DNA from: Bacillota bacterium
Lineage (GTDB): Bacteria; Bacillota; Clostridia; Christensenellales; Pumilibacteraceae
Direction: 5' to 3'
NCBI GenBank assembly: GCA_009781235.1
Contig: WQYM01000001.1
Span: 1 to 56,019, forward strand
DNA length: 56,019 bases
A program made the position numbers and the translations under genes. The notes below the pieces were generated by a model, which had not been told where the DNA came from, made no database searches, and worked only from the letters and a program-made list of their open reading frames with translations. Below are positions 9,865 through 55,880 of this stretch, piece by piece; position 1 is the stretch's first letter; each line of letters starts with the position of its first letter.

Positions 9865-9906
9865 GAGGCAGTGTCCTGAGAGAATGATTTTTGATGCCGA
9901 CACCTC

Positions 9907-18197: not shown

Positions 18198-18404
18198 TAT
18201 TGAATATTCCATATTAGACTTGTTCGGAAACTCCCTCGAACTTTTCAAAAAACAGTTTTTGAAACGTCTCGTAGGGGTCGATTTACAAATCGACCCGCCA
18301 AATGTACTTGTTTTAAAGGTTGCGGGTCGATTTGTAAATCGACCCCTACGTTGCATTTCGGTTTTTTAAATCGTGACAGGGTTTCCGAACAAGTCTATTC
18401 AATA
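18198..18404. repeat. nested hairpin: outer 24-34 nt inverted repeat enclosing a REPIN-like doublet (18271-18349)
   Basis: The outer arms are CTATTGAATATTCCATATTAGACTTGTTCGGAAAC and GTTTCCGAACAAGTCTATTCAATA. The inner units are GTAGGGGTCGATTTACAAATCGACCC ... GGGTCGATTTGTAAATCGACCCCTAC. Confidence 0.85.
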
Positions 18405-21697: not shown

Positions 21698-22720
21698 CTA
21701 TATCGGCGCGGATTCTATCGCCGCAATCAGCGTTTTGGCGTCTGTGATGCGGCACAATTCGGCTTTTAAGTCTTTGACGCCGGGGATGCCTTTTAGGTAA
21801 TAGACGAAGTGTTTGCGGAGCGAGGTAACGACATAGCGCTCGGGAAAGGCTTCGAGGGCGTACCCGATGTGGCGCAGGAGGTTTTTTTTAGTTGACGGTT
21901 GACGGTTGACGGTTGACGGTTGTGCCTTGCCAGTTGATATGCTATCATCCCCATCCAATAACTGTCCACTATCCACTGTCCACTGTCCACTTAAAAAAAT
22001 CCCCGGGTTGCCTATCGCTCCCCGCCCGACTATCACCCCCGCGACACCGTAATCTTTTATGCGATCCATCGCTTCCTCACGGCTTGACACGTCGCCGTTG
22101 CCGATTACAGGGACTTTTAGCGCGGCGGCCACCGTCCCGATAGCCTCCCAATCCGCTGCCCCTCCATACAATTGCTTTACAGTGCGTCCGTGTACCGCTA
22201 CGGCGGACGCGCCGGCGGATTCTAAGGCGCGGCAAAAATCGACGGTGTTTTGTTTATCGGAAATCCCGAGGCGCGTCTTTACGGTTACGGGGCGCCCCGA
22301 TATTTGCGTGCTCTTTACGCACGCCTCCACGATCTCCGCCGCCAATTTCGGATTTTTTAAGAGCTCCGAGCCGTCGCCGTTACGCGTAATTTTGGGCATC
22401 GGGCAGCCCATGTTAATATCAATTATATCGAATTTCTCCAGCGCTGGCAAAGAGAGCGCGGCGGAAAAATCGGCCGGGTCGGAGCCGAATAATTGCACGC
22501 ACGACGGCGTTTCGTTGTCGGCCAACGCCAAAAGCTGCGCGGTGTTTTTGCTGTTGTGCACAAAGCCGCGCACCGAAACCATTTCGGTCGTGGTGAGCCC
22601 CGCGCCCGCATCCCTGCAAAGCCGCCGGAACGCAAGGTCGGTATAGCCCGCCATGGGAGCGAGCAAAAGGTTAGACGGGAGCGTGACGGCTCCGATTTTG
22701 ATAGGTTTAATATAGTTCAT
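21698..22720 (-). CDS. dus: tRNA-dihydrouridine synthase with in-frame repeat insert
   Basis: LAPMAGYTD and DINMGCP motifs. ATG at 22720 (MNYIKPIK) is preferred over the TTG at 22747. Confidence 0.88.
   Translation of the reverse strand: MNYIKPIKIGAVTLPSNLLLAPMAGYTDLAFRRLCRDAGAGLTTTEMVSVRGFVHNSKNTAQLLALADNETPSCVQLFGSDPADFSAALSLPALEKFDIIDINMGCPMPKITRNGDGSELLKNPKLAAEIVEACVKSTQISGRPVTVKTRLGISDKQNTVDFCRALESAGASAVAVHGRTVKQLYGGAADWEAIGTVAAALKVPVIGNGDVSSREEAMDRIKDYGVAGVIVGRGAIGNPGIFLSGQWTVDSGQLLDGDDSISTGKAQPSTVNRQPSTKKNLLRHIGYALEAFPERYVVTSLRKHFVYYLKGIPGVKDLKAELCRITDAKTLIAAIESAPI
21883..21999 (-). mobile_element. two-array element (4 x GTTGACG ... 4 x CTGTCCA) inside dus, bounded by TTTTTTTA / TAAAAAAA
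   Basis: The arrays are 21891-21922 and 21961-21991 and are not complementary. The core on the minus strand contains TTGGATGGGGATGA. It is translated as LSGQWTVDSGQLLDGDDSISTGKAQPSTVNRQPSTKK. Confidence 0.7.
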
Positions 22721-22745: not shown

Positions 22746-22875
22746 AAAATTATAAAATATAAAATATTAAATATAAATTATGGATGAATATTTGAGTAAA
22801 ACAAGTGTTTTTGACAAATAACACGGCAATCAGCAGCCTAAATTTATATTATATATTTTATATTTTATATTTTTT
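22746..22875 (+). mobile_element. heptamer-armed hairpin element (ATAAAAT arms), gene-less copy
   Basis: The arms are 22746-22779 and 22840-22875. The core starts ATGGATGAATATTTGAGTAAAAC. It fills the dus-mazG intergenic gap. Confidence 0.75.
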
Positions 22876-23569: not shown

Positions 23570-23688
23570 AAATTACAAATTACAAATTACAAATAAGGCT
23601 CTTGCACTACTTCACTACCGCACTATTGCACTACTGCACTACCGCACTATTGCACTACCGCACTACCGCACTACCGCACTACCGCACT
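23570..23688. repeat. two different heptamer arrays side by side (3 x ATTACAA, then about 12 x GCACTAC/GCACTAT) without core or partner arm
   Basis: AAATTACAAATTACAAATTACAAAT-AAGGCTCTT-GCACTACTTCACTACCGCACTATTGCACTACTGCACTACCGCACT... Confidence 0.9.
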
Positions 23689-26301: not shown

Positions 26302-26347
26302 GAACCCGTTGTAAGAGGACACCACCAAAACATATCTTGTTACTTTT

Positions 26348-26486
26348 TAGCGAATAGCGAATAGCGATGGATTATTTGTATTAGAATCAAAGTTTTATCG
26401 CAAAAAAATTGAAGTGTGCTACCTGCTTTTGATACTAACTAAGAATCATCCGAAGCTATTCGCTATTCGTTATTCGCTATTCGCTA
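26348..26486 (+). mobile_element. heptamer-armed hairpin element (TAGCGAA arms), gene-less copy
   Basis: The arms are 26348-26366 and 26455-26486. The core starts ATGGATTATTTGTATTAG. Confidence 0.8.
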
Positions 26487-26704
26487 AAAATAGCTTAGCA
26501 GACAATATCGCGGTTGTCCAAGCCGAGACTTATTTATAAAACCCGAGCCCAAACACCATTCGACCGTTATTTATTTTATTTCTTTGATTCAAAGCACCTT
26601 GACAAAACATTAGAAAAACACAGTTTTATACACTATAGCATATAATAAAGCTTTTGGCAATCCTTTTGCAGAACTTTTTTTCAAAATTTTTTTGGAAAAA
26701 TTGG

Positions 26705-29044: not shown

Positions 29045-32000
29045 TCACCCCAGCAAAAACTTCAGCATCCCCGCCCGATCGGCGCCGAACAGGACGCGGG
29101 AGGCGATGGGGTCGATTTTTGCGCCCTTAAAACGGGCGGCGGAGGGCGGGATATCGGCGGTTTTTCTAAACTTTACAAAGGCCTCGGCACGCTTGACCGT
29201 TACGCCCTCGGCTCGAAGGCGGGCGGCGAGGTTTTTAAGGAGGGCGATTAAGATTAGGTTTTCGGTCGGATGCGGGATGGGGCCGTAGATGTCTTTTAGC
29301 TCGGCCATCAGTCTTTTACGCTCGTCCATCGACGCGGTTTGGCTGATGCGGGTGTAGACGCGGACGCGCAAAGCCTTGTCGGCGATATAGTCGTCGGGGA
29401 TAAAGGCGTTGAAGTCGGTAGTGACCTTGACGTCGGGGAGAAAACCCGACGAGTGAGGAATGAGGAGTGAGGAGTGAGGAACGGTGGAAGAACTGCCCTC
29501 TTTTTCATCCGACATTGTGCGCTGCGTTTCGCGCGTTGTGCATTCGTTGTCATCCATCCATCGTTCCTCACTCCTCACTCCTAACTCCTCACTCCACCCG
29601 CCAAGCTCGGCTACCGCTTCCGCTAGTATCCTTGCGTACATCTCATACCCTACCCGCTCGATGTGGCCGTGCTGCTCGCGCCCCAAAATATTGCCGGCGC
29701 CCCTGATTTCCAAATCCCGCATCGCGATTTTAAAGCCGCTGCCAAACTCGGTGAATTCCGTAATCGCGGCGAGGCGCTGGTACGCGCTTTCGGTAAGGAC
29801 TTTATGACCGTCGAACGTAAAATACACGTGCGCAAGCCGGTTGGAGCGGCCGACGCGGCCGCGCAATTGATAGAGCTGTGCAAGGCCGAAGTGGTCGGCG
29901 TCGATGACCACCATCGTGTTGGCATTGGGCATGTCGATGCCGTTTTCGATGATGGAGGAAGCCACCAAAACGCCGTACTTCCCCGCCGTAAACGCCTCCA
30001 CCGTGTTCTCTAAGCTTTCGGCCGCCATCTGCCCGTGGGCAACCGCGACCCGAACCTCCGCGCCCAGCATGTTTTTAACCTGCGCGGCGAATTTGTCGAT
30101 CGACGCGACGCGGTTATAGACGATAAAGGTTTGGCCGCCGCGCCCCGTTTCGCGCAAAACGGCGTCGGCCAGCAGGCTTTCGGCGTACTCGGTAACGTAG
30201 GTTTTAATCGGCAGGCGCTGCTCCGGCGGGGTGTCAAGCACGCTGATATCGCGGATGTGCGAGAGCGAAAAATGCAGCGTGCGCGGGATGGGCGTCGCCG
30301 AAAGCGTCAGCACGTTTACGTCGCTTTTCAGCGATTTTATCTTTTCCTTGTCCGCGACGCCGAACCGCTGCTCCTCGTCGAGAATCAATAAACCGAGGTC
30401 GCGAAATGCCACGTCTTTTGAGAGCATACGGTGCGTGCCGCATACGATGTCGGCGCGCCCGTTTTGCAGGGATTCGAGCGCGGCGGCGATTTCCTTAGGG
30501 GCGTCGAACCTTGTAAGGCTCACGGCATTCACGCCGAACGGTTCCATGCGGTTTTTTACCGTGTTAAAATGCTGGCGCGCGAGGATGGTAGTCGGGGAAA
30601 GAAACGCGACCTGCTTGCCGTCCGCGATTACCTTGTACGCGGCGCGCAGGGCGACCTCGGTTTTGCCGTAGCCCACATCCCCGCACAACAGCCGATCCAT
30701 CACCTTGCCCCGCTCCAAATCTTTTAGGCACTCGTCCGTCGCGGTTAGCTGGTCCTCCGTCTCGTTGTAGGGGAACGCCGCGGCAAATTCGTCGTCAAGT
30801 TCGCGGTTTTTCGGGTATTGGTGTCCCTTTGCCGCCGCGCGCACCGCATACAATTCGGTTAAATCGACCGCCATTTTTGCGACGGACGCTTTTACGCGCT
30901 CCTTGACGCGCGCAAATTCCGCGCCGCCAATCTTTGAGAGCTTGGGTTCCGCTTCGCCTTCGCCGAAAGCAGAGAGGCTGTCCATGTTTTCGACTGGCAC
31001 GTACAGGGTGTCGCCGCCCGCGTAACGGATGACGGCGTAATCGCGCTCCGCCCCGCCCAATTTCAGGCGCGTAACGGATTCGCAAAAGCCGATGCCGTGG
31101 TAGGCGTGCACGACATACGCGCCGATCGCGGGTTCGGTGAACGGGTCGCGCTTGCCCCGCCGTATCACCTTTTTTTGCCCGCCGCCCGGCGCAATCGACT
31201 TGGTGCCGATCAAAACCAGCTTTTCGTCGTGGAAAATGGCACCCTCGATTAGCTTTTCGGCGACGACGTCAAGTTTGCCTTTGCCGCCCGTATTGAAAGG
31301 CCGCAAAGACGCGAAAAATCCCGTCATTTTTTCCTGCGCCGCCGGACTCCCGCAGAAAATAACGACGCGGTAACCGTTGGACATCCACGCCCTAACGTCG
31401 TCCGCAAGGGCGTTAAAATCGCGGTGATAGGCGGGAAAATCGAGCGAGGATTTAAAGTTGAAGAGGACTTGGGGCTTAAAAAGCCGGTTTTGGCTGTCCA
31501 CCGCATGGAACGCGAGCTTTGGACACGCAAATGCAAGCGCAGATTCCTTTGGCGCGAGTTGGCGAATTGAGGATTTTAACACCTCTCCCTTTGAGAGCCC
31601 CGCCTTGTAACGGTTTTCGTGCTCGGTGTAGATGAGGTTGAGTTGGTCGGCAACTTGCTTTGCGTCGTCAAAAATGACGCGTGCGGGTTTAAAAAAATCC
31701 GCAAAGCCGCAGTGATTGAAAAGCGGCATCAAAAACGACAACCGCATATCGTGGGAACCGGAGGTGAGGTCGGAGGTGAGGTGGGAACGGAGGGTATGGT
31801 ATGCGTCCGCGTCTCGGGGTTCGGAGCTCGGGGGACGGGGTTCGAAGTTTTCAGTGAAGGTATCAGGGCACAAGGCACAAGGCGCAGGTACCGGATGAGC
31901 AAAATCTCCTTTATCTGTGCCTTGTGCCTTGTGCCCTGATACCTTTTCTCTCGTATCCAGCTCCGCCAGCGCGCGCGTCAATATCTCGTCCACCTCGGAT

Positions 32001-32947
32001 TCGCTGTAAAAAACCTCGGTATTGGGGGGAATAAAAATGCGCTCTAATGCCTCTTTTGACGTTAAATCGAACGCGTCAAAGGCTTTAATGCTCTCGACTG
32101 TGTCGCCGAAAAATTCGACGCGCACGCCAGTTTCCCTATCCAGCGGAAACACGTCCAAAATATCGCCGCGCAAACTAAACTGTCCCCGCGCCGCCGCTAG
32201 GCTTTCGCGGCGGTAGCCCGACTGCACCAGCCGTTTTGCCAATTTCTGCGGGTCGTAGTCTTTCCCCGCTTCGATCGTGATAAAATGCGCCTCGAACTGT
32301 TCCCGCAGCGGAAACAACTGGCACACCGCCTCGACGGTGGTTACCACAATGCAAGTAGGATTTTGCACCGCCGCCGCCATCGCACTAAGCCTGGCCGCAT
32401 GGTTTTCGGATGAGCTTAAACGCCGATAGTTTAAAACGTCGTCCTTTGCGGGAAGGAGAATACAATTAGGAATGAGGAGTGAGGAATTAGGAATTGCGGA
32501 TGATTTTGATTCCGATTCCCCGTAGGGGTCGCCGTCCCCGGCGACCCGCCCATCCGATTCCCCGTAGGGGTCGCACGGCGTGCGACCCGCCCCCATGGGC
32601 GGCGATTGGCTCGTCAAACACAAAAACTGCTCGCACGCCCTTTTTGCCGCCAATTCGTCCGCGCAAACGTATATTGTGGGGGATAAAGCGTGGGGAGCAC
32701 CAATCCCCGTAGGGGCGGAGGGCCATCCGCCCGCAGTCCGTGCATTGCCCATATGTTCGGGCGGATTGCCATCCGCCCCCACAAAATTATTCTTTTCCCC
32801 GACCCATTCCCCATTCCCCAACTCCGCCGCCAAAACCGTTCGTGCGCCAAACGACAGCGAAAAAGCCGAGATATTTTTATCCCGGGCACTCTCGAGCAAT
32901 TTTTTTGCTTCTCCTTTAAATTCGATTGGGTGATTATTTGGGAGCAT
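29045..32947 (-). CDS. mfd: transcription-repair coupling factor Mfd carrying several in-frame repeat inserts (1300 aa)
   Basis: Walker A GDVGYGKTEVA, DEEQRFG box, RGRVGRS motif and a CarD-like region (VVHAYHGIG). The inserts are at 29451-29595, 31758-31943, 32465-32597 and 32691-32820. Confidence 0.95.
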   Translation of the reverse strand: MLPNNHPIEFKGEAKKLLESARDKNISAFSLSFGARTVLAAELGNGEWVGEKNNFVGADGNPPEHMGNARTAGGWPSAPTGIGAPHALSPTIYVCADELAAKRACEQFLCLTSQSPPMGAGRTPCDPYGESDGRVAGDGDPYGESESKSSAIPNSSLLIPNCILLPAKDDVLNYRRLSSSENHAARLSAMAAAVQNPTCIVVTTVEAVCQLFPLREQFEAHFITIEAGKDYDPQKLAKRLVQSGYRRESLAAARGQFSLRGDILDVFPLDRETGVRVEFFGDTVESIKAFDAFDLTSKEALERIFIPPNTEVFYSESEVDEILTRALAELDTREKVSGHKAQGTDKGDFAHPVPAPCALCPDTFTENFEPRPPSSEPRDADAYHTLRSHLTSDLTSGSHDMRLSFLMPLFNHCGFADFFKPARVIFDDAKQVADQLNLIYTEHENRYKAGLSKGEVLKSSIRQLAPKESALAFACPKLAFHAVDSQNRLFKPQVLFNFKSSLDFPAYHRDFNALADDVRAWMSNGYRVVIFCGSPAAQEKMTGFFASLRPFNTGGKGKLDVVAEKLIEGAIFHDEKLVLIGTKSIAPGGGQKKVIRRGKRDPFTEPAIGAYVVHAYHGIGFCESVTRLKLGGAERDYAVIRYAGGDTLYVPVENMDSLSAFGEGEAEPKLSKIGGAEFARVKERVKASVAKMAVDLTELYAVRAAAKGHQYPKNRELDDEFAAAFPYNETEDQLTATDECLKDLERGKVMDRLLCGDVGYGKTEVALRAAYKVIADGKQVAFLSPTTILARQHFNTVKNRMEPFGVNAVSLTRFDAPKEIAAALESLQNGRADIVCGTHRMLSKDVAFRDLGLLILDEEQRFGVADKEKIKSLKSDVNVLTLSATPIPRTLHFSLSHIRDISVLDTPPEQRLPIKTYVTEYAESLLADAVLRETGRGGQTFIVYNRVASIDKFAAQVKNMLGAEVRVAVAHGQMAAESLENTVEAFTAGKYGVLVASSIIENGIDMPNANTMVVIDADHFGLAQLYQLRGRVGRSNRLAHVYFTFDGHKVLTESAYQRLAAITEFTEFGSGFKIAMRDLEIRGAGNILGREQHGHIERVGYEMYARILAEAVAELGGWSEELGVRSEERWMDDNECTTRETQRTMSDEKEGSSSTVPHSSLLIPHSSGFLPDVKVTTDFNAFIPDDYIADKALRVRVYTRISQTASMDERKRLMAELKDIYGPIPHPTENLILIALLKNLAARLRAEGVTVKRAEAFVKFRKTADIPPSAARFKGAKIDPIASRVLFGADRAGMLKFLLG
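29451..29595 (-). mobile_element. heptamer-armed hairpin element (GAGTGAG/CCTCACT arms) in frame in mfd
   Basis: It is homologous to 6088-6232 in both arms and core, and is read in the same element frame (SEELGVRSEERWM...). Confidence 0.85.
31758..31847. repeat. two-array insert (2 x GGAGGTGAGGT(C) ... CGGGGTTCG-like) in mfd
   Basis: CCGGAGGTGAGGTCGGAGGTGAGGTGGG - core - CTCGGGGTTCGGAGCTCGGGGGACGGGGTTCGAAG. Confidence 0.6.
31859..31943 (+). mobile_element. short heptamer-armed hairpin (GGCACAA arms) in frame in mfd
   Basis: The 29-nt arms are 31859-31887 and 31915-31943 and are nearly perfectly complementary. The 27-nt loop contains CCGGATGAGCAAAATC. Confidence 0.85.
32465..32597 (+). mobile_element. 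composite insert in the mfd N-terminal domain: AGGAATT/GAGTGAG arm + GCGGATGATTTTGA core start + two GTAGGGGTCGC palindromes
   Basis: Read directly from the sequence. It is translated as QSPPMGAGRTPCDPYGESDGRVAGDGDPYGESESKSSAIPNSSLLIPN. Confidence 0.7.
32691..32820. repeat. REPIN-like doublet (GTAGGGGCGGAGGGCCATCCGCCC ... GGGCGGATTGCCATCCGCCCCC) plus CATTCCC repeats inside mfd
   Basis: It is the same unit family as 9907-10013. It is translated as NGEWVGEKNNFVGADGNPPEHMGNARTAGGWPSAPTGIGAPHALS. Confidence 0.7.
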
Positions 32948-33172: not shown

Positions 33173-35190
33173 ATGACAAAAAGACTTTTAAAACTCCTCA
33201 CGGTTTTTGGTATCGCTCTGCTTTTAGCGTTTTCCGTTATGGCGTGCGGCATCAATATTCAATCACCCGCGGATATCACCGTTACGTTTTCCTCCAACGT
33301 CCAAACATACGCGACGGTCAAAGTCAAGCCGGGCGCGGTTATGCCGGATGAACCGGAAAAAGAGGGGCTTGTATTCATCGGCTGGTTTAAAGACGATGGG
33401 GTTTTTACGCAGCCGTTTACCGGATTTTCGGGCGTGTCGGCTAGTATAACGGTGTACGCCAAGTGGATGCCCGCAGTACAAGAACCGCCGAACAAAACGG
33501 AAGCGGACATCTTTATCGCTCTGGTTAACGCGCTGCCCTTAACCGATGTATTAGCGAACGAAGACAAAATTACAGAAGCGCGCGCGTATTACGAAACGCT
33601 CTCGGCAACAATGAAAAACGCGACGGATGTCACAAAAGCGCTTGCATTGTTGGAGACGATAGAAAAGCTACTGAGTGAAACGGTGGCTTTGATTATTATC
33701 GTCGACGCGTCTACCAGCACGTGCGCGCCGGTTAGACCCAGCGCAAGTCATAAAATGCCCTATGACGAAGATATGCTGGGTAGTCGGCTTTGGGCTGAAG
33801 TTGAGGGCGCGAGAGCAGCCGTGAACGCGTTGGACGACAATGATTATGTCGGGATAATTTCAATGAATCTCCCCGAGGCAAGACCTCGGGGTATCCCCCT
33901 CAGCTCACTGCGTTCGCAATAAGCAGACCGACGCAAGACGTCGGGGAATAAAACCCGGAGAGATTTAACCATTCTGCTACGCTCCGGCTGGGGTTTACGC
34001 CCGTAGCCCGTACCGCCGAGATTGACGAGGCTCTCGGCAGTATAACCACCTCTCAAGGCACAATATACGATAGTGCGGTTTCGATGGCACAAGCGACTTT
34101 TAGCAATGTTAAAGTCGGGTGTAAAAAGCACATACTCTTTGTGACCGACGGCATACCGCTGGATGGCGATATGTGGCAATGGACGGTCAATAATACCATT
34201 AAGAATATGGCGAAAAGCGGCATCACATTCTCTGCCATCGGCGTCGGACGCGAGGCAGACAGTACGAGCGTAAAGATACCTCTGCTAGAAATGGCGACCA
34301 ACGGCGGCGGAGTATTTTATCCGATACCCGAAGTCACATGGATTTCCGATACCGTGGTGCAAGACGTCATGCAAAGAGAAGTCGAATATTTAAAAACAAG
34401 AACCAACTTTAAAACTATCGAGATTCCGAACGGAACGACAAGTATCGCCGCCTACGCTTTTGCCCGTTATGACAAGCTTAAGAGCATCATAATACCTGCT
34501 TCCGTAACAAGCATCGGAAAGTTGGCGTTCTACGGTTGCGGCGATCTAGAAAGCATCACAGTAATAAGCGGAAACTCCGCATACAAAGCCGACGGGAATT
34601 GCTTGATACGGATAGCGGATAAGGCGTTGATAGCGGGCTGCAATGCAAGCGTTATCCCGGATTATGTGGAAAGTATCGATGAATACACTTTTTCCAAGTG
34701 TGCGAGACTACAGAGTATTGAAATCCCAGACAATGTAAAAATCATCGGCATCGGCGCGTTTGCCGGCTGCAGCGAATTAGAAAACTTTACGATACCGTTT
34801 TTAGGAAAAACAGCCGATGGAAATGCGAGATTTTCATATTTTTTTGGTTATGCCGACAACAGTATTCCACCATCACTGAAAACGATTGCCGTTACGGGTG
34901 GCAGCACTATCGGGGATTTTGCTTTCAGCGGTTGCAGCGGAGTAACGAGCATCACGCTGCCCAACAGTGTGACGAATATCTACCAATCTGCTTTTACCAA
35001 CTGCGTCGGGCTTAAGAGTATAATCCTTCCGTCCGGTTTAACGAGCATTGGTTTCAATGCTTTTTATGGTTGCGCCGAGTTGACAGATGTATACTTTAGA
35101 GGAACTCAAAGCGAATGGGACGCAATAAATAAAAGCAGCTCAAGTTTTCCAATCGAAACAACGATACATTACAACTACATCGGAGAATAA
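33173..35190 (+). pseudogene. surface lipoprotein (Listeria-Bacteroides repeat + vWA + BspA-type LRR_5) interrupted within the vWA domain
   Basis: Signal and lipobox-like MTKRLLKLLTVFGIALLLAFSVMACG. The vWA start is IIIVDASTS. Frame 2 stops at 33922, and the vWA continues in frame 1 from 33952 (TAEIDEALGSITTSQGTIYDSAV ... ILFVTDGIP). LRR_5-like repeats follow (IPASVTSIGKLAFYGC). Confidence 0.7.
33869..33975 (+). mobile_element. about 107-nt hairpin-bearing insertion splitting the vWA gene (boundaries approximate)
   Basis: It contains the hairpins CCCCGAGG-CAAGA-CCTCGGGG and CCGACG-CAAGA-CGTCGG, plus the 51-nt block shared with 73-123. An insert length of 2 mod 3 would restore the frame. Confidence 0.55.
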
Positions 35191-40276: not shown

Positions 40277-41882
40277 CGTCGTCGTCCCCTTGAATGGCGG
40301 GATTGTGGGTTCGGGGCTCGGAATTCGGGGCTCGGGATTCGGGGTTCGGGATTCGGGGTATTAAGTTGTCTTCCTTTAACTGACCACCGACCACCGACCA
40401 CTGACCACTCTCCTCGGGGTTCGGGATTCGGGGTATTAACTCGTCTTCCTTTAACTGACCGCTGGCCACTGGCCACTGACCACTGACCCCCATAGGAGCC
40501 GATGCCCTCGCTGGCCCGCCGTCCCCTGTCCCTACGGTATCTATCCGTTGTTCACCGGCCATCCCTTCTCTCCGCAATTCCTCACTCCTAATTCCTAATT
40601 CCTCATTCGCCTCATTCGCCTCGTTCTCACCTGCCTCGTCCTCCATGGCCGGCAGCGCCAAAATCTCACGTCCGGCGATGCCTTCTAAGTCGCCGCTCAT
40701 GCCGCAGAGGCTTTTAGAAACCTTTTCGATGATTTTTTCCTGCGCCGCCCAACGCTTCTGCGCCTGCTTTTTTTCGAGCGCGAGCTGGCGCGCCATTTCG
40801 TCGTAGGACTCGATGACGCTGCGGATCCGGGAGGCGAATTCCCCGCCCGTCAGATAATTGTACATCATCTCTATTTTGACGTCCTTGCCGCTTGCGTTCC
40901 GGTTGGCGACAAAAACTCTTACGCACACCTCGCGCAAAAGCGAGGCAAGCATCACGGCATAGCGGGGCTTGACCATCCAAATGTTGCCCTCAATCTGCTT
41001 AAAGTCCTCACCGCCGCCGTCGGTCGGGCGAAACACCAAAACGCCGATTTGCGCTTTTTCTTCCGCCATGACGTCTTTGAGTTTTTCGAGCCATTTAGGG
41101 GAATACGCCTTGGCGTTTTTACATTCCCATACAATCAGGCCGCAGTTTTGATAAAATTGTTCGTTTACGGTTTGGCGGACGTCGGAACCTTGCTCGCCTT
41201 TTTTAACCTCTCTAACCGAGTCATAAGGAAAATGGGCACGCAAGGATTGCTCTAAGTCAAGCTCTAAAATTTCACCCTGCGCCTGCTGCGAGCCTTGTTC
41301 GGCCACCTGCTTTGCCGCCGTCAGTTGCTCGCGCAATTTAGAAATGGTTTCTTGCTGTTCGCGGATTTGCGTATAAAAGTCCTCGGACGCCGCCCTTACC
41401 GCCTCCTCGCGGATGAGCTTTTCTTTTGAGAGCAGCTCCTTGCGGGCGGCAAGCTCGGCGTCTTTTTTTGCCTCGGCGGCTTTCGACAATTCCTCGAGCA
41501 GCCCTTTTTGCTGCTCGCGCAATCTGTCCGCGCTGTCTTGGGCGTTTTTGGCCTCGCGGCGGAGCTTCTCGTTTTCGAGCTCGGTGGATTGCTTGGCGTT
41601 TTCCAGCGCCAGCTCCGTCGCTTGCTTGGTTCTCTCTAATTCAAGCTTGGCGTTTTGGCGTTCACGTAAAAGCTTTTGCTCCGCCGCTTGCTCCGCCTCG
41701 CGCACGGCCGATAACACCGCCTGCTTCTCGTTTTCCTCGGCGCGCGACAAAAACTCCCGGCGCAAATTTTCTTCCTGCCCGGCCTTGGCTTTTGTCAGCT
41801 CGTCCTCTATTTGGCGCTGAATGGCGTCGGTTATTTCAAAAGGATTTTTGCAATTTGGGCAAACGATTACGGTTCCGCTCAT
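40266..41882 (-). CDS. DUF2130-like protein: N-terminal CPNC zinc-ribbon-like motif, long coiled coil, PD-(D/E)xK-like core, repeat-derived C-terminal tail
   Basis: MSGTVIVCPNCKNPF. There are about 190 aa of E/K/Q/A-rich heptads. GSDV...IVWECKNAK (D...ExK). From about aa 405 the tail is encoded by repeat elements. Confidence 0.75.
   Translation of the reverse strand: MSGTVIVCPNCKNPFEITDAIQRQIEDELTKAKAGQEENLRREFLSRAEENEKQAVLSAVREAEQAAEQKLLRERQNAKLELERTKQATELALENAKQSTELENEKLRREAKNAQDSADRLREQQKGLLEELSKAAEAKKDAELAARKELLSKEKLIREEAVRAASEDFYTQIREQQETISKLREQLTAAKQVAEQGSQQAQGEILELDLEQSLRAHFPYDSVREVKKGEQGSDVRQTVNEQFYQNCGLIVWECKNAKAYSPKWLEKLKDVMAEEKAQIGVLVFRPTDGGGEDFKQIEGNIWMVKPRYAVMLASLLREVCVRVFVANRNASGKDVKIEMMYNYLTGGEFASRIRSVIESYDEMARQLALEKKQAQKRWAAQEKIIEKVSKSLCGMSGDLEGIAGREILALPAMEDEAGENEANEANEELGIRSEELRREGMAGEQRIDTVGTGDGGPARASAPMGVSGQWPVASGQLKEDELIPRIPNPEESGQWSVVGGQLKEDNLIPRIPNPESRAPNSEPRTHNPAIQGDDDDAY
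40307..40488 (-). repeat. two tandem copies of a two-array element ((GGTCAGT)n - GTTAAAGGAAGAC - (CCCCGAA)n) in the DUF2130 tail
   Basis: The copies are 40307-40409 and 40413-40488, homologous to 44565-44660. They are translated as SGQW.V.GGQLKED.LIPRIPNPE. Confidence 0.8.
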
Positions 41883-44387: not shown

Positions 44388-44458
44388 GTGACCCGGTCAA
44401 TGCGTGTCCCGTGACCCGGTCAATGCGTGTCCCGTGACCCGGTCACCGTGCACGGGAC
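44388..44458. repeat. 2.5 tandem copies of the 23-mer GTGACCCGGTCAATGCGTGTCCC ending in a hairpin
   Basis: The copies are 44388-44410, 44411-44433 and a partial copy at 44434-44458 (GTCCCGTG...CACGGGAC). Confidence 0.85.
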
Positions 44459-44557: not shown

Positions 44558-44564
44558 GAGAATT

Positions 44565-44660
44565 CAGTTTTCAGTTTTCAGTTGTCGGTTGTCAGTTGAA
44601 AGAAGATGGATTTGTATCCTGTCCCCCGAGCCCCGAATCCCGAACCCCGAACCCCGAAAA
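44565..44660 (+). mobile_element. two-array element ((CAGTTTT/CAGTTGT)n - GAAAGAAGATGGATTTG - (CCCCGAA)n)
   Basis: The arrays are 44565-44597 and 44623-44660. It ends 8 nt from the stop of the acyl-CoA synthetase gene. Confidence 0.75.
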
Positions 44661-46332: not shown

Positions 46333-46370
46333 TGTGGGAACTCCTTATATCGTGCGTTAGAGCTTTTATT

Positions 46371-46720
46371 AGTGCAGTAGTGCAATAGTGCAATAGTGCA
46401 ATAGTGCAGTAGTGATGGTTTCTATTCTGTCGTTGTATTTTTAGATAGCAAATAAAATCTTGTTTATTTCTGCACAACCTCTTTTTATGTCATAATACGA
46501 TTGGGCATCTATATATCCCGTCGCATACAGTAGCTCAATCCAATACTCACACTCCGTCGCTTCTTTTAAAGCAATACCAATCTTATTCGCAAAGTCTCTC
46601 TTGCTAACCGCGCGATTTGCTTCAAATACATTTGCGCCGACACTCGTTCCGGAACGTACAAGTTGTTATTGTCACTCACTTTTCATCCTCCACTACTGCA
46701 CTACTGCACTATTGCACTAG
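46371..46720 (-). mobile_element. heptamer-armed element (AGTGCAG/GCACTAC arms) carrying a truncated four-helix-bundle gene
   Basis: The arms are 46371-46414 and 46691-46720 and are complementary. On the minus strand the interior starts GAGGATGAAAAGTGAGTGA (RBS, ATG, 3 codons, stop). Confidence 0.8.
46441..46665 (-). pseudogene. N-terminally truncated four-helix-bundle (23S rRNA IVS-protein family) gene
   Basis: My own translation is QLVRSGTSVGANVFEANRAVSKRDFANKIGIALKEATECEYWIELLYATGYIDAQSYYDIKRGCAEINKILFAI*. It matches the family pattern RSxTSIGANxxEA...SKxDFxxKxxIALKEAxETxYWLxLL. Confidence 0.75.
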
Positions 46721-47778: not shown

Positions 47779-47889
47779 GGTGACTCCTTTTTCACTTAAA
47801 ACTTAAAAATGAAAACTTAAAAATGTTGAATGATTATGGATAAGGAGACAAAAAACATCCTCCATTTTTCAGTTTTAAGTTTTAAGTTT

Positions 47890-48411
47890 TCATTGACTCT
47901 TCCCTATCCTAAACGCCTTCATATTCAGCTCAATCATGTCCGCGCGCTTGGCGGAAATGGCTTTTACGAGGGCGGCTTTGACGGTTTCTTCGTCCTCCGC
48001 CGCCAAAACCTTGCCCATCATGATGATGTTGGCTAGGCTTGCCATTCCGTTATCGGAGGCCAATTGCGTTGCCGGCACGTACACGGCGCAGACGTCGGCG
48101 CGGTTCACTTTGCGGCCGATCAGCGTGGAATCGACAAAAATGGTGCTGCCGGGCTTTGCCGCAGACTCGAACTTATCGAGCGAGGGCAAATTCAGCGCAA
48201 CCAACACGTCGGAAGCGTTGACAATGGGCGAACCGACCGGATCGTCCGAAATAATTACCGAGCAATTCGCGGTTCCGCCGCGCATCTCCGGGCCGTAGGA
48301 TGGCAGCCAACTGACCTGTTTGCCCTTGGTCAGCCCTAAATACGCTAAAAATTTACCGGCGAACAATACGCCTTGGCCGCCGAACCCGGCGAGTAGGTAT
48401 TGGGTAGTCAT
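47890..48411 (-). CDS. 2-oxoacid:ferredoxin oxidoreductase gamma subunit
   Basis: The N-terminus carries GFGGQGV. The start was trimmed to ATG 48411, which has a GGAG RBS. Confidence 0.85.
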   Translation of the reverse strand: MTTQYLLAGFGGQGVLFAGKFLAYLGLTKGKQVSWLPSYGPEMRGGTANCSVIISDDPVGSPIVNASDVLVALNLPSLDKFESAAKPGSTIFVDSTLIGRKVNRADVCAVYVPATQLASDNGMASLANIIMMGKVLAAEDEETVKAALVKAISAKRADMIELNMKAFRIGKSQ

Positions 48412-48463
48412 GGTGATAATCTCCTTTTTCAATACGATAATCAATCCTTAGTGCACTATTGCA

Positions 48464-49210
48464 CTATTGCACTTTACTGCGGTCTTTGTACACTCCCACC
48501 GGGTAATACGGCAACATTTTTTCCTCTAACCACTTTAGGGCGGCCGTCGGGGCGAGGCCCCAGTTGGTGGTGCAGGTGGAAAGCACCTCGATTAGAGAAA
48601 AGCCTTTGTTGTTTACTTGGTTTTCGAACGCCTTTTTAATCGCCTTTTTGGCGCTACGCACGAATTTAACGTTGTGGACGGAAACGCGCTCCAAATACTC
48701 CGGGCCGTCTAACGTTGCCAGCATTTCGCACACTTTTATCGGGTAACCGCAAAGCGAGGGGTTGCGGCCGTAGGGAGAGGTCTGCGTGACTTGGCCCGGG
48801 AGGCTGGTGGGCGCCATTTGGCCGCCCGTCATGCCGTAAATCGTGTTGTTGATAAAAATAATCGTGATATTTTCGCCCCGCGCCGCCGCGTGCACGGTTT
48901 CCGCCATGCCGATGGACGCCAAATCGCCGTCGCCCTGATAGGTAAAGACGATGTTGTTAGGGTCGGCGCGTTTAATGCCCGTGGCCACCGCCGGAGCCCG
49001 ACCGTGCGCAGCTTGCGCCATATCAAAATTGTAGTACTCATAAATGAGCACCGCGCAGCCGACCGGCGCGACGCCGATTGTTTTGCCCTCGATACCGAGT
49101 TCGTCCACGGCTTCGGCTACAAGGCGATGCACGATGCCGTGCGTACAGCCCGGGCAATAGTGCAGGGGCACGTTTGAGAGGGATTTGGGTTTTTCAAAAA
49201 CTGTTTTCAT
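48464..49210 (-). CDS. 2-oxoacid:ferredoxin oxidoreductase beta (TPP-binding) subunit
   Basis: YCPGCTHG and YQGDGD motifs. The start was trimmed to ATG 49210 (MKTVFEKP), which has a GGAG RBS. The longer ORF runs into the repeat arm. Confidence 0.9.
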   Translation of the reverse strand: MKTVFEKPKSLSNVPLHYCPGCTHGIVHRLVAEAVDELGIEGKTIGVAPVGCAVLIYEYYNFDMAQAAHGRAPAVATGIKRADPNNIVFTYQGDGDLASIGMAETVHAAARGENITIIFINNTIYGMTGGQMAPTSLPGQVTQTSPYGRNPSLCGYPIKVCEMLATLDGPEYLERVSVHNVKFVRSAKKAIKKAFENQVNNKGFSLIEVLSTCTTNWGLAPTAALKWLEEKMLPYYPVGVYKDRSKVQ

Positions 49211-49228: not shown

Positions 49229-49399
49229 AATGATAAATGATAAATTATAAATGATAAATGTCGGATGGGTTGACTTCCGGAACAAAAGAATTACGCTCTT
49301 TCACAAGCATACAACATCAATAATTTATCATTTATCATTTATCATTTATCATTTGTCTATCATTTATCATTTATCATTTATCATTTATCATTTATCATT
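49229..49399 (+). mobile_element. heptamer-armed hairpin element (ATGATAA/TTATCAT arms) between the alpha and beta subunit genes
   Basis: The arms are 49229-49260 and 49324-49399. The core starts TCGGATGGGTTGACTTCCGGAACAAAAGAA. The right arm encodes the last residues and the stop of the alpha subunit. Confidence 0.85.
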
Positions 49400-50477: not shown

Positions 50478-50631
50478 ATTTACAATTTACGATTTAAAAT
50501 TTACAAATTAGGGATAAGTGTTTTTCGGTTTAAAAGCAAAGTTCTTTTGTTCCGGGCACTCTTATCGGGCTGCCGCAAAAAATCCGTCAATAGTTTGTAA
50601 ATTGTAAATCGTAAATCGTAAATCGTAAATT
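50478..50631 (-). mobile_element. heptamer-armed hairpin element (ATTTACG arms), gene-less copy
   Basis: The arms are 50478-50509 and 50594-50631. The reverse complement of the core aligns with the core of 118-251 (shared CCGGAACAAAAGAAC, CGGAT and TATCCCT). Confidence 0.8.
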
Positions 50632-50897: not shown

Positions 50898-51125
50898 CCG
50901 CACCGGAGGTGCGGAATGTGGGTAACCCGGGGTTAAGCGTAGCGCAACCCCGGGTGAAGGAAAACGCCCTCTCTTGCGCACCGTAGGTGCGCGACCGGTG
51001 GTATGTTTTGTTGCTTACCGGATTTCGGGTCGCGCACCTACGGCGCGCAAGGCCGCCGTTCGACCGCGCCCCGGGTTACGCTACGCTCACCCGGGGTTAC
51101 CCACATTATACGCCTTCGGCGCATT
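50898..51125. repeat. about 230-nt compound palindrome (outer GGGTAACCCGGGG... arms, inner GCGCACCGTAGGTGCGC units)
   Basis: The outer arms are 50916-50954 and 51069-51106. The inner units are 50974-50996 and 51028-51050. Flanking hairpins are CCGCACC-GGA-GGTGCGG and GCC-TTC-GGC. Confidence 0.8.
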
Positions 51126-52489: not shown

Positions 52490-53245
52490 TTACCCGAATC
52501 TTCCCGTAATATAATCGTTTGTCCTCTTGTCTTTCGGGGCCGAGAAGACCGACGAGCAGACGCCTTCCTCGATGAGGTCGCCTTTCAGCATAAACGCAAC
52601 GCGGTCGGAGACGCGCACCGCCTGCTGGGTGTTGTGCGGCGCGAGGATTACGGTAAGGCGGGATTTTAATTGCGTCAGGGCTTCCTCGATTTTTGCCGTA
52701 GAGATGGGGTCGAGCCCCGAACACGGGCGGTCTAATAATATTACCTCCGGGTCAAGCGCCAAAACCGTGGCGATGCACAGTCGCTGCTGCTGGCCGCCGG
52801 AAAGCGAGCCGGAGGGCAGCTTTAGCCGGTCGTTTACCTCGTCCCACAGCGCGGCCGTCGTCAACGCTTTTTCCACTATTTCTGAAAGCTTTTGCTTGTT
52901 TTTGATGCCGCTGCGGCGCGGGCCGTAAGAGACAAAATCGAAAATCGACAACGGAAGCGGCCGGGGGATGTCGAACACCATGCCCACTTTACGCCGCAGC
53001 TCCGTTACCACGCAGTCCGGAGCAAAAATATTTTCGCCGTTCAACAAAATCTCGCCCGTGTGGCGCGCCTCATGGTTTAGGTCGCACAGGCGGTTTATCG
53101 AGCGCAGCAACGTGGAAATCCCGCTGTTGGCAGGACCGATTACCGCCAAAATGGCGTTAGACTCGACCGTCAAGTTCAAATTCTTGATGACTTGCTTGTC
53201 GCCGTAGTAGAAGTTGAAATCTTTGATAACTATTTTAGGCATCAT
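52490..53245 (-). CDS. pstB: PstB-like phosphate ABC ATPase with degenerate catalytic motifs
   Basis: It is collinear with PstB (FYYG, LSGGQQQRLCIA, DYITGRFG). However Walker A reads GPANSGIS (no Lys) and Walker B reads ILLDRPCSGLD (Glu to Arg). The start was trimmed to ATG 53245. Confidence 0.85.
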   Translation of the reverse strand: MMPKIVIKDFNFYYGDKQVIKNLNLTVESNAILAVIGPANSGISTLLRSINRLCDLNHEARHTGEILLNGENIFAPDCVVTELRRKVGMVFDIPRPLPLSIFDFVSYGPRRSGIKNKQKLSEIVEKALTTAALWDEVNDRLKLPSGSLSGGQQQRLCIATVLALDPEVILLDRPCSGLDPISTAKIEEALTQLKSRLTVILAPHNTQQAVRVSDRVAFMLKGDLIEEGVCSSVFSAPKDKRTNDYITGRFG

Positions 53246-53291
53246 TGTGTGAGTCAATCTCCATTTGCAAAACATTGGCATTCGGTATCGT

Positions 53292-53736
53292 CGGGGTTCG
53301 GGGTTCGGGATTCGGAATTCGAAATTAGTTTTATGTATCAAGTTTTTTAATTAAGGCGTTTATCATTTGACCGATTCGGGCTACAAGACACAAGCAATCC
53401 TCAATATCAGTATCTGACAAATATCCTACATCTACACAAAGAAGACATTGAGTCTCCAGCTCGCAACTTGAGCTTCTTGATATGGCTAAAAACTGAATGT
53501 ATTCTTTCGTTGAGTTTCTAGAATGCCCTTCTGCAATATTCGACGGTATAGATACCGCGGCACGACACATTTGGCTTGTTAATCCGTATTGTTCGTTGCG
53601 CGGCAACCTCTTTGTAAGCAAATATACTCTTTTTACAAGTTCTCTACTTACTTGCCAAACTTCAAGCTCCTTGTAGTTTTTTATCACTTCTGAATCTCCC
53701 TAAATTCGAATCCCGAATCCCGAACCCCGAACCCCG
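53292..53736 (-). mobile_element. heptamer-armed element (GGGGTTC/CCCCGAA arms) carrying an intact four-helix-bundle gene
   Basis: The arms are 53292-53326 and 53702-53736, with 24 perfectly complementary bp plus a partial extension. It fills the pstA-pstB gap and ends 2 nt from the pstCA stop. Confidence 0.85.
53331..53687 (-). CDS. four-helix-bundle protein (23S rRNA intervening-sequence protein family)
   Basis: YKELEVWQ, YGLTSQMCRAAVSIPSNIAEGHSR, EYIQFLAISRSS..ELETQ. GTG start with an AGGGAGA RBS. Confidence 0.88.
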   Translation of the reverse strand: MIKNYKELEVWQVSRELVKRVYLLTKRLPRNEQYGLTSQMCRAAVSIPSNIAEGHSRNSTKEYIQFLAISRSSSCELETQCLLCVDVGYLSDTDIEDCLCLVARIGQMINALIKKLDT

Positions 53737-53738
53737 AC

Positions 53739-55880
53739 TTACCCCGCCTTCAAAAGCCTCTTCTTGCCCTTTTTGGTCGCCCGCGCATCGCGCCCCACAA
53801 AGCGGTTAAGAAGCGCGTTGAAACCAACGTTGATAATTAAAATTAAAATGATTAAGAGCGCGGCGGTTCCGTACGCCTTTTCCATCGAAATCCCCTCGTC
53901 CGCAAGGATAAAGAAATGGCTCGCCATCGTTCGCATCCTTAGCGCGGAGCCCGCCGTCAAAATGACGGCGGCGGTCTCGGCAACGCAGCGGCCGATTCCC
54001 AAAATTACGCCGTTCACAATGCCCCGAAGCGCCGTCGGGAACACCGCGTACAAAACCGTTTGCCACTTAGACGCGCCCAAACTAAAACTCGTTTCACGAT
54101 AGGAGTTCGGCACGGTTTTTATCGCCTCCTCAGACGTGCGGATGACGGTGGGCAATACCATAATCGCAAGCGTCAGCCCGCCGGACAGTGCGGAGAAGCC
54201 GAAAGCGGAAACAAATATGATGAAGCCGAACAACCCGTATACGATCGAGGGGATGCCCGCCAGCGACTCTACGGAAAAGCGGATGACGCGGGTCCAAATG
54301 TTCTCTTTTGTGTATTCCGCCAAATAAAACGCCGAACCTATGCCGAACGGTATTGATATAAGGAGCGCAAGCCCCGTAACCACAAACGTACTGACTATGG
54401 TGGCCGCAACGCCGCCCTCGCGCCCCATATCGCGCGGGTTTTGGGTGAGGAATTCCCAAGTAAGCTCGGGTACGCCCATAATCAAAAGATATACAATAAT
54501 CGCTATCAAAACCGCTAACACTAATACTGCGGCCGCCCAAATGATAACTTTAGCTGCCCTTTGCGTCGCGCGCGGGCTGGCGCGACGGCCGGCCTTATCG
54601 CCGGACGAAATTAAGGGCTGGGGGCGCGGCGGGCCTTGCGGCGCGGATTGCAACTGTGACGCCGAAATCTGCGGGGCGCCCGATGGGCCGCCCCCTACAA
54701 CGGCGGGGGCAAGGCCGCGCCCTACGGTTCCCGCATCCGCGTTTACATTTTGCGAAATCCCCGCGGTTTCCGTATCCGCATTTGTAGTTTGCGGATTGTA
54801 ATTTGTGATTTGCGCTTCCGGAGGCACTCCTCCGGCAACCGCGACCGCTAAGCTCGGCTTCTTTTTCCTCTTTTTCGCCGCCCCTTTCAGCTTATCGCGG
54901 GTAATATATTGGGCAATGCTGTTAATGAGCATGATAATCACAAACAACACGACGCCCGTCGCAAAAAGCGCCTGCTGGTGCTTACCCTCGGCATACCCCA
55001 TCTCAAGCCCGATATTGGTCGTCAAGGTACGCATCGGCGCCAAAATCGATTCGGGAAAAGCGGTTGCATTGCCGAGCACCATAATAACTGCCATCGTCTC
55101 GCCCACGGCGCGGCCGACGCCCAAAATAATGGAGGCGATGATGCCGGACTTTGCCGCCGGGATTTGGACGCGCCATATCGATTGCCATTGCGTCATCCCC
55201 AGTGCCAGCGCGCCCTCCTTATAGGGCTTCGGGAGCGACAGCAACGCGACCTCCGAAATGCTGATGACGGTGGGCAAAATCATAATCGCCAAAACGACGG
55301 AGCCCGCAAGCATACTAAGCCCCGGTCCGCCGATGAATTCACGGATAAAGGGGACGACAAAGATAAGGCCCACAAAGCCGTAGACCACCGACGGGATGCC
55401 GGCCAACAACTGAATCGCGGGGCGAAACGCGTTGCGGACTTTGTCCGGAGCGAATTCCGCCAAAAATATCGCGCAAGCCACCCCGATCGGGACGCCGATC
55501 ACAATCGCGCCCAACGTGACGAACAGGGTGCCTACGATCATGGGCAATATGCCGAATCCCCCTTTGGTGGGCGACCACTTAGAGCCGAACAAAAAGTCCC
55601 ACAGGCTGACCTCGCCAAAAAAGCCGGCTGCTTGCACGATAATAAATATGGTAATGAGCGCAAGCGCGGAAAGCGCGGAAAGCGCAAGCAAAAAGAAAAT
55701 GCGCCCGCTCAATTTCTCCTTAAACTTTCGGAAGCCTCCGGCGGGTTTTGTCGTTTGACCCGTCTCCGCCTTTTCGATGCCCACCGATTTAAGGTCTTGG
55801 CGCAGGGAAGAAACAAGCATGGCGACAAACGCCGCGCCGATAAGGCCTATGATTACCCACATCCACCATAATTTCATCAT
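53739..55880 (-). CDS. PstC-PstA fusion permease (713 aa) joined by a low-complexity, repeat-containing linker
   Basis: There are two permease halves, each with an EAA-like loop (first half EGALALGMTQWQSIWRVQIPAAKSGI; second half ETSFSLGASKWQTVLYAVFPTALRGI). The linker is at about 54569-54875. Confidence 0.85.
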   Translation of the reverse strand: MMKLWWMWVIIGLIGAAFVAMLVSSLRQDLKSVGIEKAETGQTTKPAGGFRKFKEKLSGRIFFLLALSALSALALITIFIIVQAAGFFGEVSLWDFLFGSKWSPTKGGFGILPMIVGTLFVTLGAIVIGVPIGVACAIFLAEFAPDKVRNAFRPAIQLLAGIPSVVYGFVGLIFVVPFIREFIGGPGLSMLAGSVVLAIMILPTVISISEVALLSLPKPYKEGALALGMTQWQSIWRVQIPAAKSGIIASIILGVGRAVGETMAVIMVLGNATAFPESILAPMRTLTTNIGLEMGYAEGKHQQALFATGVVLFVIIMLINSIAQYITRDKLKGAAKKRKKKPSLAVAVAGGVPPEAQITNYNPQTTNADTETAGISQNVNADAGTVGRGLAPAVVGGGPSGAPQISASQLQSAPQGPPRPQPLISSGDKAGRRASPRATQRAAKVIIWAAAVLVLAVLIAIIVYLLIMGVPELTWEFLTQNPRDMGREGGVAATIVSTFVVTGLALLISIPFGIGSAFYLAEYTKENIWTRVIRFSVESLAGIPSIVYGLFGFIIFVSAFGFSALSGGLTLAIMVLPTVIRTSEEAIKTVPNSYRETSFSLGASKWQTVLYAVFPTALRGIVNGVILGIGRCVAETAAVILTAGSALRMRTMASHFFILADEGISMEKAYGTAALLIILILIINVGFNALLNRFVGRDARATKKGKKRLLKAG

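Follow-up and report, generated by a model that had tools for sequence, protein, structure and literature searches.

The contig WQYM01000001.1 (GenBank assembly GCA_009781235.1) of a Bacillota bacterium affiliated to the Pumilibacteraceae was analysed over its positions 1 to 56,019, a stretch of DNA referred to here as the window. The window's minus strand carries a pst operon with a small open reading frame (ORF) for a four-helix-bundle (4HB) protein between a fused pstC-pstA gene (pstCA) and pstB. Two inverted arms of tandem heptamers enclose this ORF (Table 1), and arms and gene together are called the cassette in the following. The pstB gene was recognized by its position in the operon and by TIGR00972 (E 2.5e-96), with 321.8 bits just below the curated cut-off of 343.2. 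The three genes are encoded on the same strand, thus the cassette is co-oriented with the operon.

Table 1 Features of the cassette, its host operon and related elements in the window
Feature	Position	Strand	Remarks
pstC-pstA fusion	53739..55880	-	713 aa; upstream host gene; TIGR02138, TIGR00974, PF00528 twice
5' arm (transcript sense)	53700..53738	-	GTC GGGGTTC GGGGTTC GGGATTC GGGATTC GAATTTAG
Shine-Dalgarno-like GGAG	53696..53699	-	8 nt upstream of GTG; context UAG-GGAG-AUUCAGAA-GUG, read from the sequence
Four-helix-bundle gene	53331..53687	-	118 aa; GTG start, TAA stop; PF05635 / TIGR02436, intact
3' arm (transcript sense)	53290..53328	-	CTAATTTCGAATTCCGAATCCCGAACCCCGAACCCCGAC; inverted repeat, period 7, folded stem
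pstB	52490..53245	-	251 aa; downstream host gene; TIGR00972 and operon position
Decayed second cassette	46370..46719	-	8-mer arms TAGTGCAA / CACTACTG; PF05635 remnant inside
ORF-less heptamer hairpins (examples)	218-250, 4361-4516, 6087-6233, 8932-9039, 21891-21991, 22746-22874
ORF-less heptamer hairpins (further examples)	26344-26490, 29451-29594, 31857-31945, 47798-47890, 49229-49399, 50478-50630
CGTAGGGG...CCCCTACG elements	9779-9865, 9907-10013, 11517-11634, 18270-18350, 32521-32779, 36204, 44551, 44665, 50973-51051		second palindromic family

The cassette between pstCA and pstB

The 118-aa protein matched PF05635 over profile positions 1-106 of 106 (E 2.8e-38, 130.8 bits, cut-off 33.8) and TIGR02436 with similar strength (E 1.2e-36, 125.2 bits, cut-off 24). 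Both scores exceed the cut-offs and bear out the initial annotation, a reading of the sequence without database searches, which had placed the ORF in the protein family of the 23S rRNA intervening sequences (IVS). In an alignment of 28 sequences, the window protein and 27 homologs, all 18 invariant columns were kept by the window protein, among them S46, P48-G54, R57 and E76-Q80, and the core motif S-I-P-S-N-I-A-E-G ... R; G-S..E-L-E-T-Q was present. XCC0516 (PDB 2GSC, an entry with five chains) was the closest solved structure with an E-value of 4.5e-24 over residues 5-111. By homology to XCC0516, a four-helix-bundle fold assembled into a homopentameric toroid is predicted. Models for Avd, the accessory protein of diversity-generating retroelements (DGR), stayed below their cut-offs (PF22296 29.7 bits, cut-off 40; NF033474 32.2 bits, cut-off 80), PHROG 3206 was matched with an E-value of 1.7e-12, and a PADLOC search for membership of the cassette in a defence system gave no match. 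The identical protein was found elsewhere only on two short metagenome contigs, at the same junction; the next most similar protein had an identity of 63 %. The Shine-Dalgarno (SD)-like site of the gene is located at the inner foot of the stem. Upstream of the ORF no consensus promoter was matched within the element, and promoter-like sites in the region were not above shuffled sequences. To our knowledge, no function has been assigned to the '23S rRNA IVS protein' family with its thousands of members, and we know of no answer to the question of the biological meaning of IVSs, open since about 1990.

The two arms are 39 nt long each, 95 % complementary and 371 nt apart, and Tandem Repeats Finder reported a period of 7 on each side. 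The unit variants GGGGTTC, GGGGTTC, GGGATTC, GGRATTC and GAAWTTAG are mirrored between the arms. The 3' arm begins 2 nt past the stop codon of the ORF. Folding of the minus-strand RNA of 53280-53750 yielded -166.5 kcal/mol (z = -9.7, 0 of 100 shuffles equally stable), and the terminal stem of 5' and 3' arm was part of the minimum free energy structure as well as of the centroid structure, with each arm paired. Arms, fold and sense ORF thus confirm the stem-plus-ORF layout of an IVS that had been proposed for 53292-53736. The spacing given with this proposal needs a correction: from 53292, the distance to the pstB start is indeed 46 nt, but the 5' arm extends to 53738 and directly abuts the pstCA stop codon (53739-53741) instead of lying 2 nt away, and from the end of the 3' arm at 53290 the distance to the pstB ATG is 44 nt. 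The cassette is a PF05635 gene with its own ribosome-binding site and without detectable promoter, within 39-nt heptamer arms.

The status of the element as an insertion was examined on 80 loci encoding relatives of the window PstB, the closest of them from termite-gut metagenomes. None of the about 75 readable pstA-pstB junctions contained a PF05635 gene, these junctions are normally tight. An ordinary spacer conserved in relatives, which the initial annotation had named as the finding that would speak against its reading, was thus not observed. The GC content of the cassette is 0.39-0.44, compared with 0.55-0.60 in the flanking pst genes. Because of the junctions without the gene and the lower GC content, the element at pstCA-pstB is an insertion. 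In the nearest relative (locus L083; C-terminus of PstA 91 % and PstB 80 % identical), the pstA-pstB spacer has 73 nt, and its last part, about 40 nt next to pstB, shows homology to the window sequence. At the position of the cassette, L083:445-519 contains a small hairpin of heptamer-like units (CTTAAAA / TTTTAAG, TTTTCAT). Hence, the same junction hosts different repeat elements in related lineages.

Scans of the window with Rfam and for tRNAs gave no match, nor was an rRNA matched; the cassette is located between pstCA and pstB and not in an rRNA helix as the ORF-bearing IVSs are. In Coxiella burnetii, helix 45 of the 23S rRNA contains an IVS of 428 nt with a 28-bp terminal stem, a sense S23p (PF05635) ORF and tandem GACAGAT heptamers (three copies, the number varying between strains). 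RNase III excises this IVS and cuts the stem at the first repeat, as observed in vitro and by rapid amplification of cDNA ends, and its authors termed it a selfish element (Warrier et al. 2016, PMC4990558). The IVS parallel of the initial annotation, which had cited stem and ORF, goes further, since tandem heptamers are present in the stem region of the Coxiella IVS, too. In common with the ORF-bearing 23S IVSs (Leptospira; Coxiella; Ralph & McClelland 1993), the window element has a length of about 430-450 nt, a terminal inverted-repeat stem of 28-39 bp, a sense PF05635 ORF in the loop, heptamers in the stem region, a GC content below that of the host and a dependence on host transcription. 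Its host, however, is the mRNA operon pstCA-pstB instead of the 23S rRNA helices 9, 25 or 45. The SD lies within the loop and is not removed by a cut of the stem, and the ORF is intact, whereas that of Coxiella is decaying. Excision by RNase III is proven for the rRNA elements and suggested by analogy for the window element. In short, the window element has the build of an ORF-bearing IVS, but resides in an mRNA.

Heptamer stems around homologous genes in many phyla

Homologs were retrieved from one genome per species with a scan seeded on the SIPSNIAEG motif, thus representing one PF05635 subfamily only. The 80 loci (L003-L082) encode proteins 41-55 % identical to the window protein and originate from Akkermansia, Clostridia, Bacteroidota, Nitrospirae, Omnitrophota, Acidobacteriota, Planctomycetes, bacteria of the candidate phyla radiation (CPR), a cyanobacterium, Pseudoxanthomonas and others. 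For each gene, 200 nt of upstream sequence were aligned with 200 nt of downstream sequence as pairing partners; a score of at least 30 was called an arm, and 112 placements within the same loci served as controls. Arms were present at 63 of 79 homologous genes, but only at 3 of the 112 control placements, with median scores of 40 and 19, respectively (Mann-Whitney p = 1e-26). A count of base-pair covariation would have been circular, since the arms were picked for complementarity, and the comparison with control placements was used instead. RNAduplex on the 200-nt flanks was discarded as a measure of pairing, with nearly everything paired. The closest homolog lies between pyrG and glnA and has the same build, which was also observed on phage-like contigs; an rRNA location was found for none of the 80 loci. 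The stem-plus-gene build is the rule for this gene subfamily and not a peculiarity of pst. The IVS-like layout of the initial annotation was retained, with a change of emphasis: the element is not a device specific for pst but one case of a type of cassette that surrounds most of the sampled genes of the subfamily.

The repeat period was 7 in 53 and 8 in 8 of 64 arm pairs, with a median arm length of 33.5 nt or about 4-6 units. The unit differed at nearly every locus, yet AG was phased every 7 nt. AG, mostly as YAG, was present in 45 of 52 period-7 units, and the conservation within arms was 0.86-0.93 for AG (CT on the other arm) versus 0.72-0.82 at the other positions. Across the phyla, units of the 5' arm follow NNNNYAG and those of the 3' arm CTRNNNN; GACAGAT of Coxiella fits NNNNYAG after rotation. 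The purine-rich strand always runs 5' to 3' into the element (796 G and 690 A versus 324 C in the 5' arms). Stop codons in all three frames were considered as a reason for the phased YAG and rejected, since TAG occurred in only about half of the units. Co-variation of the repeat unit with its protein, examined as a sign of specific recognition, was weak (rho 0.11), and units were shared only above about 70 % protein identity. In 64 stems, 119 G·U and 113 A·C mismatches were counted, thus without an excess of sense-strand wobble pairs.

Median distances of the arms are 4 nt to the stop codon upstream of them and 17 nt to the start codon that follows. Most homologous cassettes have an SD-like run between arm and start codon. 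Co-orientation with both neighbours was observed for 77 % of these genes and for 60 % of the other genes in the same loci (p = 0.009). A raw count of 61 versus 3 had suggested a strong co-orientation, which shrinks to these values against the baseline of the same loci. In a further set of loci for relatives of the 4HB protein (L164-L183), identical 4HB proteins are encoded in tightly packed operons: within type I restriction-modification (R-M) operons, before hsdR, and within BREX operons, between brxC and a methyltransferase gene. The heptamer arms are still recognisable there: the upstream gene terminates at the first TAG of the 5' array, and the 3' array overlaps with both the terminal part of the 4HB ORF and the start of the following gene.

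A decayed cassette and ORF-less hairpins in the window

The window contains one intact 4HB-bearing copy. The decayed second cassette is situated between genes for an AMP-binding enzyme and an aminotransferase. Its PF05635 remnant, at about 46441-46665, is N-terminally truncated and matched profile positions 36-105 (E 1.8e-18); a stub of SD and ATG is left at the 5' side. The truncated gene between these arms reveals that ORF decay inside a retained stem does occur. Arrays of the octamer TAGTGCAA / GCACTACC were also present at 23602-23688 (10 copies) and, as a short array, at 48452-48473.

Period-7 tracts are frequent in the window: 32 tracts correspond to a density of 0.57 per kb, about 6 to 20 times that of the loci compared, with values of 0.10 per kb in the surroundings of other 4HB genes and of 0.03 per kb for the pstB loci. 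Periods of 5, 6, 8 and 9 were almost absent everywhere compared. Most of the period-7 tracts form inverted pairs separated by a loop of 27-100 nt. The units of the ORF-less hairpins differ by site and recur in families, e.g., GAGTGAG, AAATTAC/GTAAATC and GGGGTTC. Many loops have an inner stem GGATG...CATCC. GGATG beside the arms was considered as a start-codon remnant that orients the hairpins, but it is one half of this symmetric inner stem and provides no orientation. Over about 145 nt, loops included, the hairpins 6087-6233 and 29451-29594 (regions 6070-6250 and 29435-29610) share 84 % identity; their 5' arms of 41 nt do not differ. In view of this identity despite unrelated flanks, the two hairpins are taken as members of a dispersed repeat family, which from sequence comparison is presumably mobile.

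Hairpins were also located within coding frames. The ORF of mfd, the gene for the transcription-repair coupling factor (29045-32947, minus strand), encodes 1300 aa, compared to 1114-1121 aa in five relatives; the nearest named Mfd homologs belong to 'Firmicutes/Clostridiales' metagenome-assembled genomes. Four extra blocks of about 40, 47, 37 and 46 aa, which the five relatives do not have, coincide exactly with the palindromic elements 32464-32820, 31857-31945 and 29451-29594, all of them in frame and stop-free. The hairpin 8932-9039 lies within ORF 8472-9860, an M20 peptidase gene, inside the match to the dimerisation domain, and the hairpin 6087-6233 within ORF 5353-7239 (628 aa, without Pfam matches).

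Further repeats were recorded. Two compound arrays, (TTCGGGG)n-spacer-(ACTGACC)n at 40298-40488 and (GTCAGTT)n-spacer-(CCCCGAA)n at 44559-44658, are reverse complements of each other at a distance of 4.2 kb and flank the genes of a DUF2130 protein and of an MFS transporter; they contain the GGGGTTC unit, as does the pst cassette, and the array at 40298-40488 is itself duplicated with a 75-nt period. A second palindromic family has the ends CGTAGGGG...CCCCTACG, with 13 CGTAGGGG sites observed versus 1.2 expected, some of these within the mfd inserts. At 44388-44445, a perfect 23-nt tandem repeat, GTGACCCGGTCAATGCGTGTCCC, is present in 2.5 copies. A direct repeat of 54 nt, 96 % identical, occurs at 70-123 and 33914-33967, 33.8 kb apart.

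Nature of the element

The element is probably an IVS-type palindromic cassette whose insertion is specific to this lineage; we regard it as a selfish or nearly neutral passenger of the operon, with a transcript that is likely cut by RNase III. Judging from the shared strand and the lack of a promoter-like site upstream of the ORF, the cassette would be co-transcribed with pstSCAB. The arms of the transcript would pair to an almost perfect duplex of about 39 bp, which RNase III would cut as it does the homologous stems in the 23S rRNA IVSs of Coxiella and Leptospira. The cut would leave pstSCA and pstB on separate RNAs, possibly still held together by an outer stub of the stem, and would free a 'panhandle' mRNA with SD (GGAG) and ORF within the loop, so that the protein could still be made afterwards. 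A selfish or near-neutral passenger is favoured over a dedicated pst regulator because of the many ORF-less heptamer hairpins in the window, including the in-frame insertions in mfd. A selfish character is suggested by the same insertions, by the decayed copy and by the dispersed ORF-less copies of 84 % identity. In our view, the cassette is one member of a palindromic element family with heptamer repeats, and this family has expanded in the genome.

Several observations weigh against this reading. Transcription of the cassette and its cleavage by RNase III are predictions, and within the 56 kb that could be analysed, no RNase III of the organism was encountered. The mismatches in the stems (119 G·T versus 113 A·C) are strand-symmetric; this is the pattern expected when complementarity arises from a process at the DNA level rather than by selection of the sense RNA. 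The bias in co-orientation (77 % versus 60 %) is modest. Hairpins are present inside the mfd frame, where an obligatory cut would destroy the mRNA, therefore cleavage cannot be unconditional. A target-site duplication was found neither at 53290/53738 nor at the hairpin copies 6087-6233 and 29451-29594, and recent identical copies of the 4HB element were not observed, hence the mobility of the ORF-bearing form we can only infer.

Dispersed palindromes in intergenic spacers are known as repetitive extragenic palindromes (REP), with the REPIN-RAYT systems, and as Rickettsia palindromic elements (RPE); the RAYT gene is itself flanked by palindromes, and RPEs insert in frame in coding genes. The cassette resembles the former in its enclosed protein gene, and the insertions in the window mfd resemble the latter. 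In contrast to REPIN-RAYT, the cassette encodes no transposase-like enzyme but a small helical bundle, and, unlike REP, its arms are tandem 7-mers with a unit that varies by copy instead of one conserved sequence. A palindromic mobile element acting at the DNA level, of the REPIN, RPE or miniature inverted-repeat transposable element (MITE) kind, is the first alternative to be weighed, although an unlikely one. A mobilising or repair machinery would act on the arms as hairpins of single-stranded DNA or as cruciforms, with the RNA stem as a by-product without a role and the 4HB gene as cargo or as a DNA-binding accessory. The strand-symmetric mismatches agree with this, as do the purine-rich strand entering the element 5' to 3' from both sides, the two dispersed hairpins with unrelated flanks, the stop-free in-frame copies in mfd that the five relatives lack and a fast turnover of the units under preserved pairing, with similar units only above about 70 % protein identity. 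However, no transposase, RAYT-type or recombinase gene lies beside the cassette, although not all ORFs of the window were scanned; a target-site duplication was not seen, and the arms vary between copies, unlike the ends recognised by transposases. Furthermore, the RNA stem of the homologous rRNA IVS is a proven RNase III substrate (PMC4990558). A DNA-level element would be compatible with RNA processing and does not exclude it.

A broader and rather doubtful proposal assigns the active role to the protein: a ubiquitous, transposase-less family of heptamer palindromes may have PF05635 pentamers as its trans-acting factor, which would read the phased heptamers and propagate the elements. Gene-bearing cassettes would be the autonomous and ORF-less hairpins the non-autonomous form. 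The protein would read AG-phased 7-nt arrays in the manner of TRAP on phased triplets, with arms of about five repeats meeting a toroid of five subunits. Spread or maintenance might proceed via the panhandle RNA excised by RNase III together with a host reverse transcriptase, as Avd acts with the DGR reverse transcriptase.

The position of the stems suggests yet another explanation, an intercistronic RNA device selected by the host, i.e., a REP-like stabiliser or insulator or a translational coupling kept for the tuning of the operon. The stem would protect the 3' end of the pstSCA mRNA or set the pstSCA:pstB ratio. In accordance with such a device, stems abut the stop codon upstream and lie a short distance ahead of the following start codon, in the window as well as throughout the subfamily, and a small heptamer-like hairpin is present at the same junction in the nearest relative. 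Intergenic G-rich heptamer repeats of Xanthomonas (GGGAATC) and Nostoc (GGGGAYT), often in convergent pairs, have been described; in Xanthomonas, they lie near the stop codon of the upstream ORF, a position conserved between species (Rehm et al. 2015, PMC4692102), which likewise agrees with a device of this kind. These repeats are similar to the window arms as G-rich tandem 7-nt units, mostly intergenic near the upstream stop codon, and as transcribed, convergent inverted pairs able to form stem-loops. The Xanthomonas and Nostoc work proposed G-quadruplexes (G4) and made no link to PF05635, whereas the window arms enclose a PF05635 gene and most units of the subfamily cassettes have no G-tracts. 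In the 5'-UTR of Haemophilus influenzae hmw1A, a long mRNA hairpin with one heptamer-repeat arm is processed by RNase III, and changes in the repeat number require RNase III and transcription (Rapun-Araiz et al. 2025, PMC12721329). The cut of this mRNA hairpin is a precedent for the processing proposed in the preferred reading of the window cassette. The hairpin differs from the cassette as the 5'-UTR regulator of a single adhesin with a phase-variable repeat number, no enclosed ORF and an unrelated sequence. Against a device of the operon stand the about 75 relatives with a tight junction, the same type of cassette in unrelated operons (pyrG-glnA, type I R-M, BREX), the same type of hairpin within coding frames and the missing G·U signature of selection at the RNA level. 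Moreover, short intercistronic spacers alone account for arms near stop and start codons. We regard a role as RNA device as improbable.

Very little speaks for a G4 regulatory repeat, in which the G-rich arm GGGGTTCGGGGTTCGGGATTCGGG folds as DNA or RNA and the hairpin is not the functional unit: the arm does have four G-tracts of at least 3 Gs at a 4-nt spacing and GGGAATC repeats form G4 in vitro (Rehm et al., PMC4692102), but most units of the subfamily have no G-runs (TGGTTAG, ATGCCAG, CGTTACA, TATCAAG), the loci have arm complementarity and phased AG in common and not G-tracts, and the perfectly complementary C-rich arm competes with a G4. Equally remote is an Avd-like accessory protein of a DGR or another defence system with the repeats as part of that system. 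Avd (bAvd, PDB 4DWL) is a homologous four-helix bundle, forms a pentamer and binds nucleic acid and reverse transcriptase; the weak similarity to PF22296, NF033474 and PHROG 3206, the relatives within type I R-M and BREX operons and the reports of relatives in cas loci (PMC3936711, PMC10910872) point in this direction. However, the Avd-specific models remained below cut-offs and PADLOC without match, the neighbours are pstCA and pstB with no adjacent reverse transcriptase, template repeat or variable-protein gene (beyond these neighbours, the scan of the window for a reverse transcriptase was not exhaustive), and an occurrence in defence operons would follow just as well if the cassette inserts into operons of any kind.

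With the insertion of a passenger cassette as the preferred reading, the element type as such is already known, it is the ORF-bearing IVS. PF05635 genes have been listed as cas-associated (PMC3936711, PMC10910872) and in CPR rRNA insertions. A link between PF05635 genes outside rRNA and heptamer stems was not found in the literature, with an incomplete coverage that makes this an absence of evidence only. What is new is its place in an mRNA operon, the evidence for a heptamer stem throughout the subfamily and outside rRNA, AG in a phased position, and a connection with the heptamer hairpins found genome-wide. The observations suggest the rRNA IVS as one landing site of a more general cassette of heptamer stem and four-helix-bundle gene, which resides mostly between the genes of ordinary operons, as in the window and around the 79 homologous genes. 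The unexplained excess of intergenic heptamer repeats in Xanthomonas, Nostoc and others is thereby connected with an element family that can be defined. Should RNase III cut such stems in mRNAs, many operons would have a built-in processing site, and if the protein acts on the repeats, the cassette could be a new kind of mobile element. Propagation by PF05635 pentamers, if true, would explain the origin of the rRNA IVSs, the function of a huge family of 'hypothetical' proteins and why bacterial genomes have an excess of heptamer simple-sequence repeats, as has long been noted.

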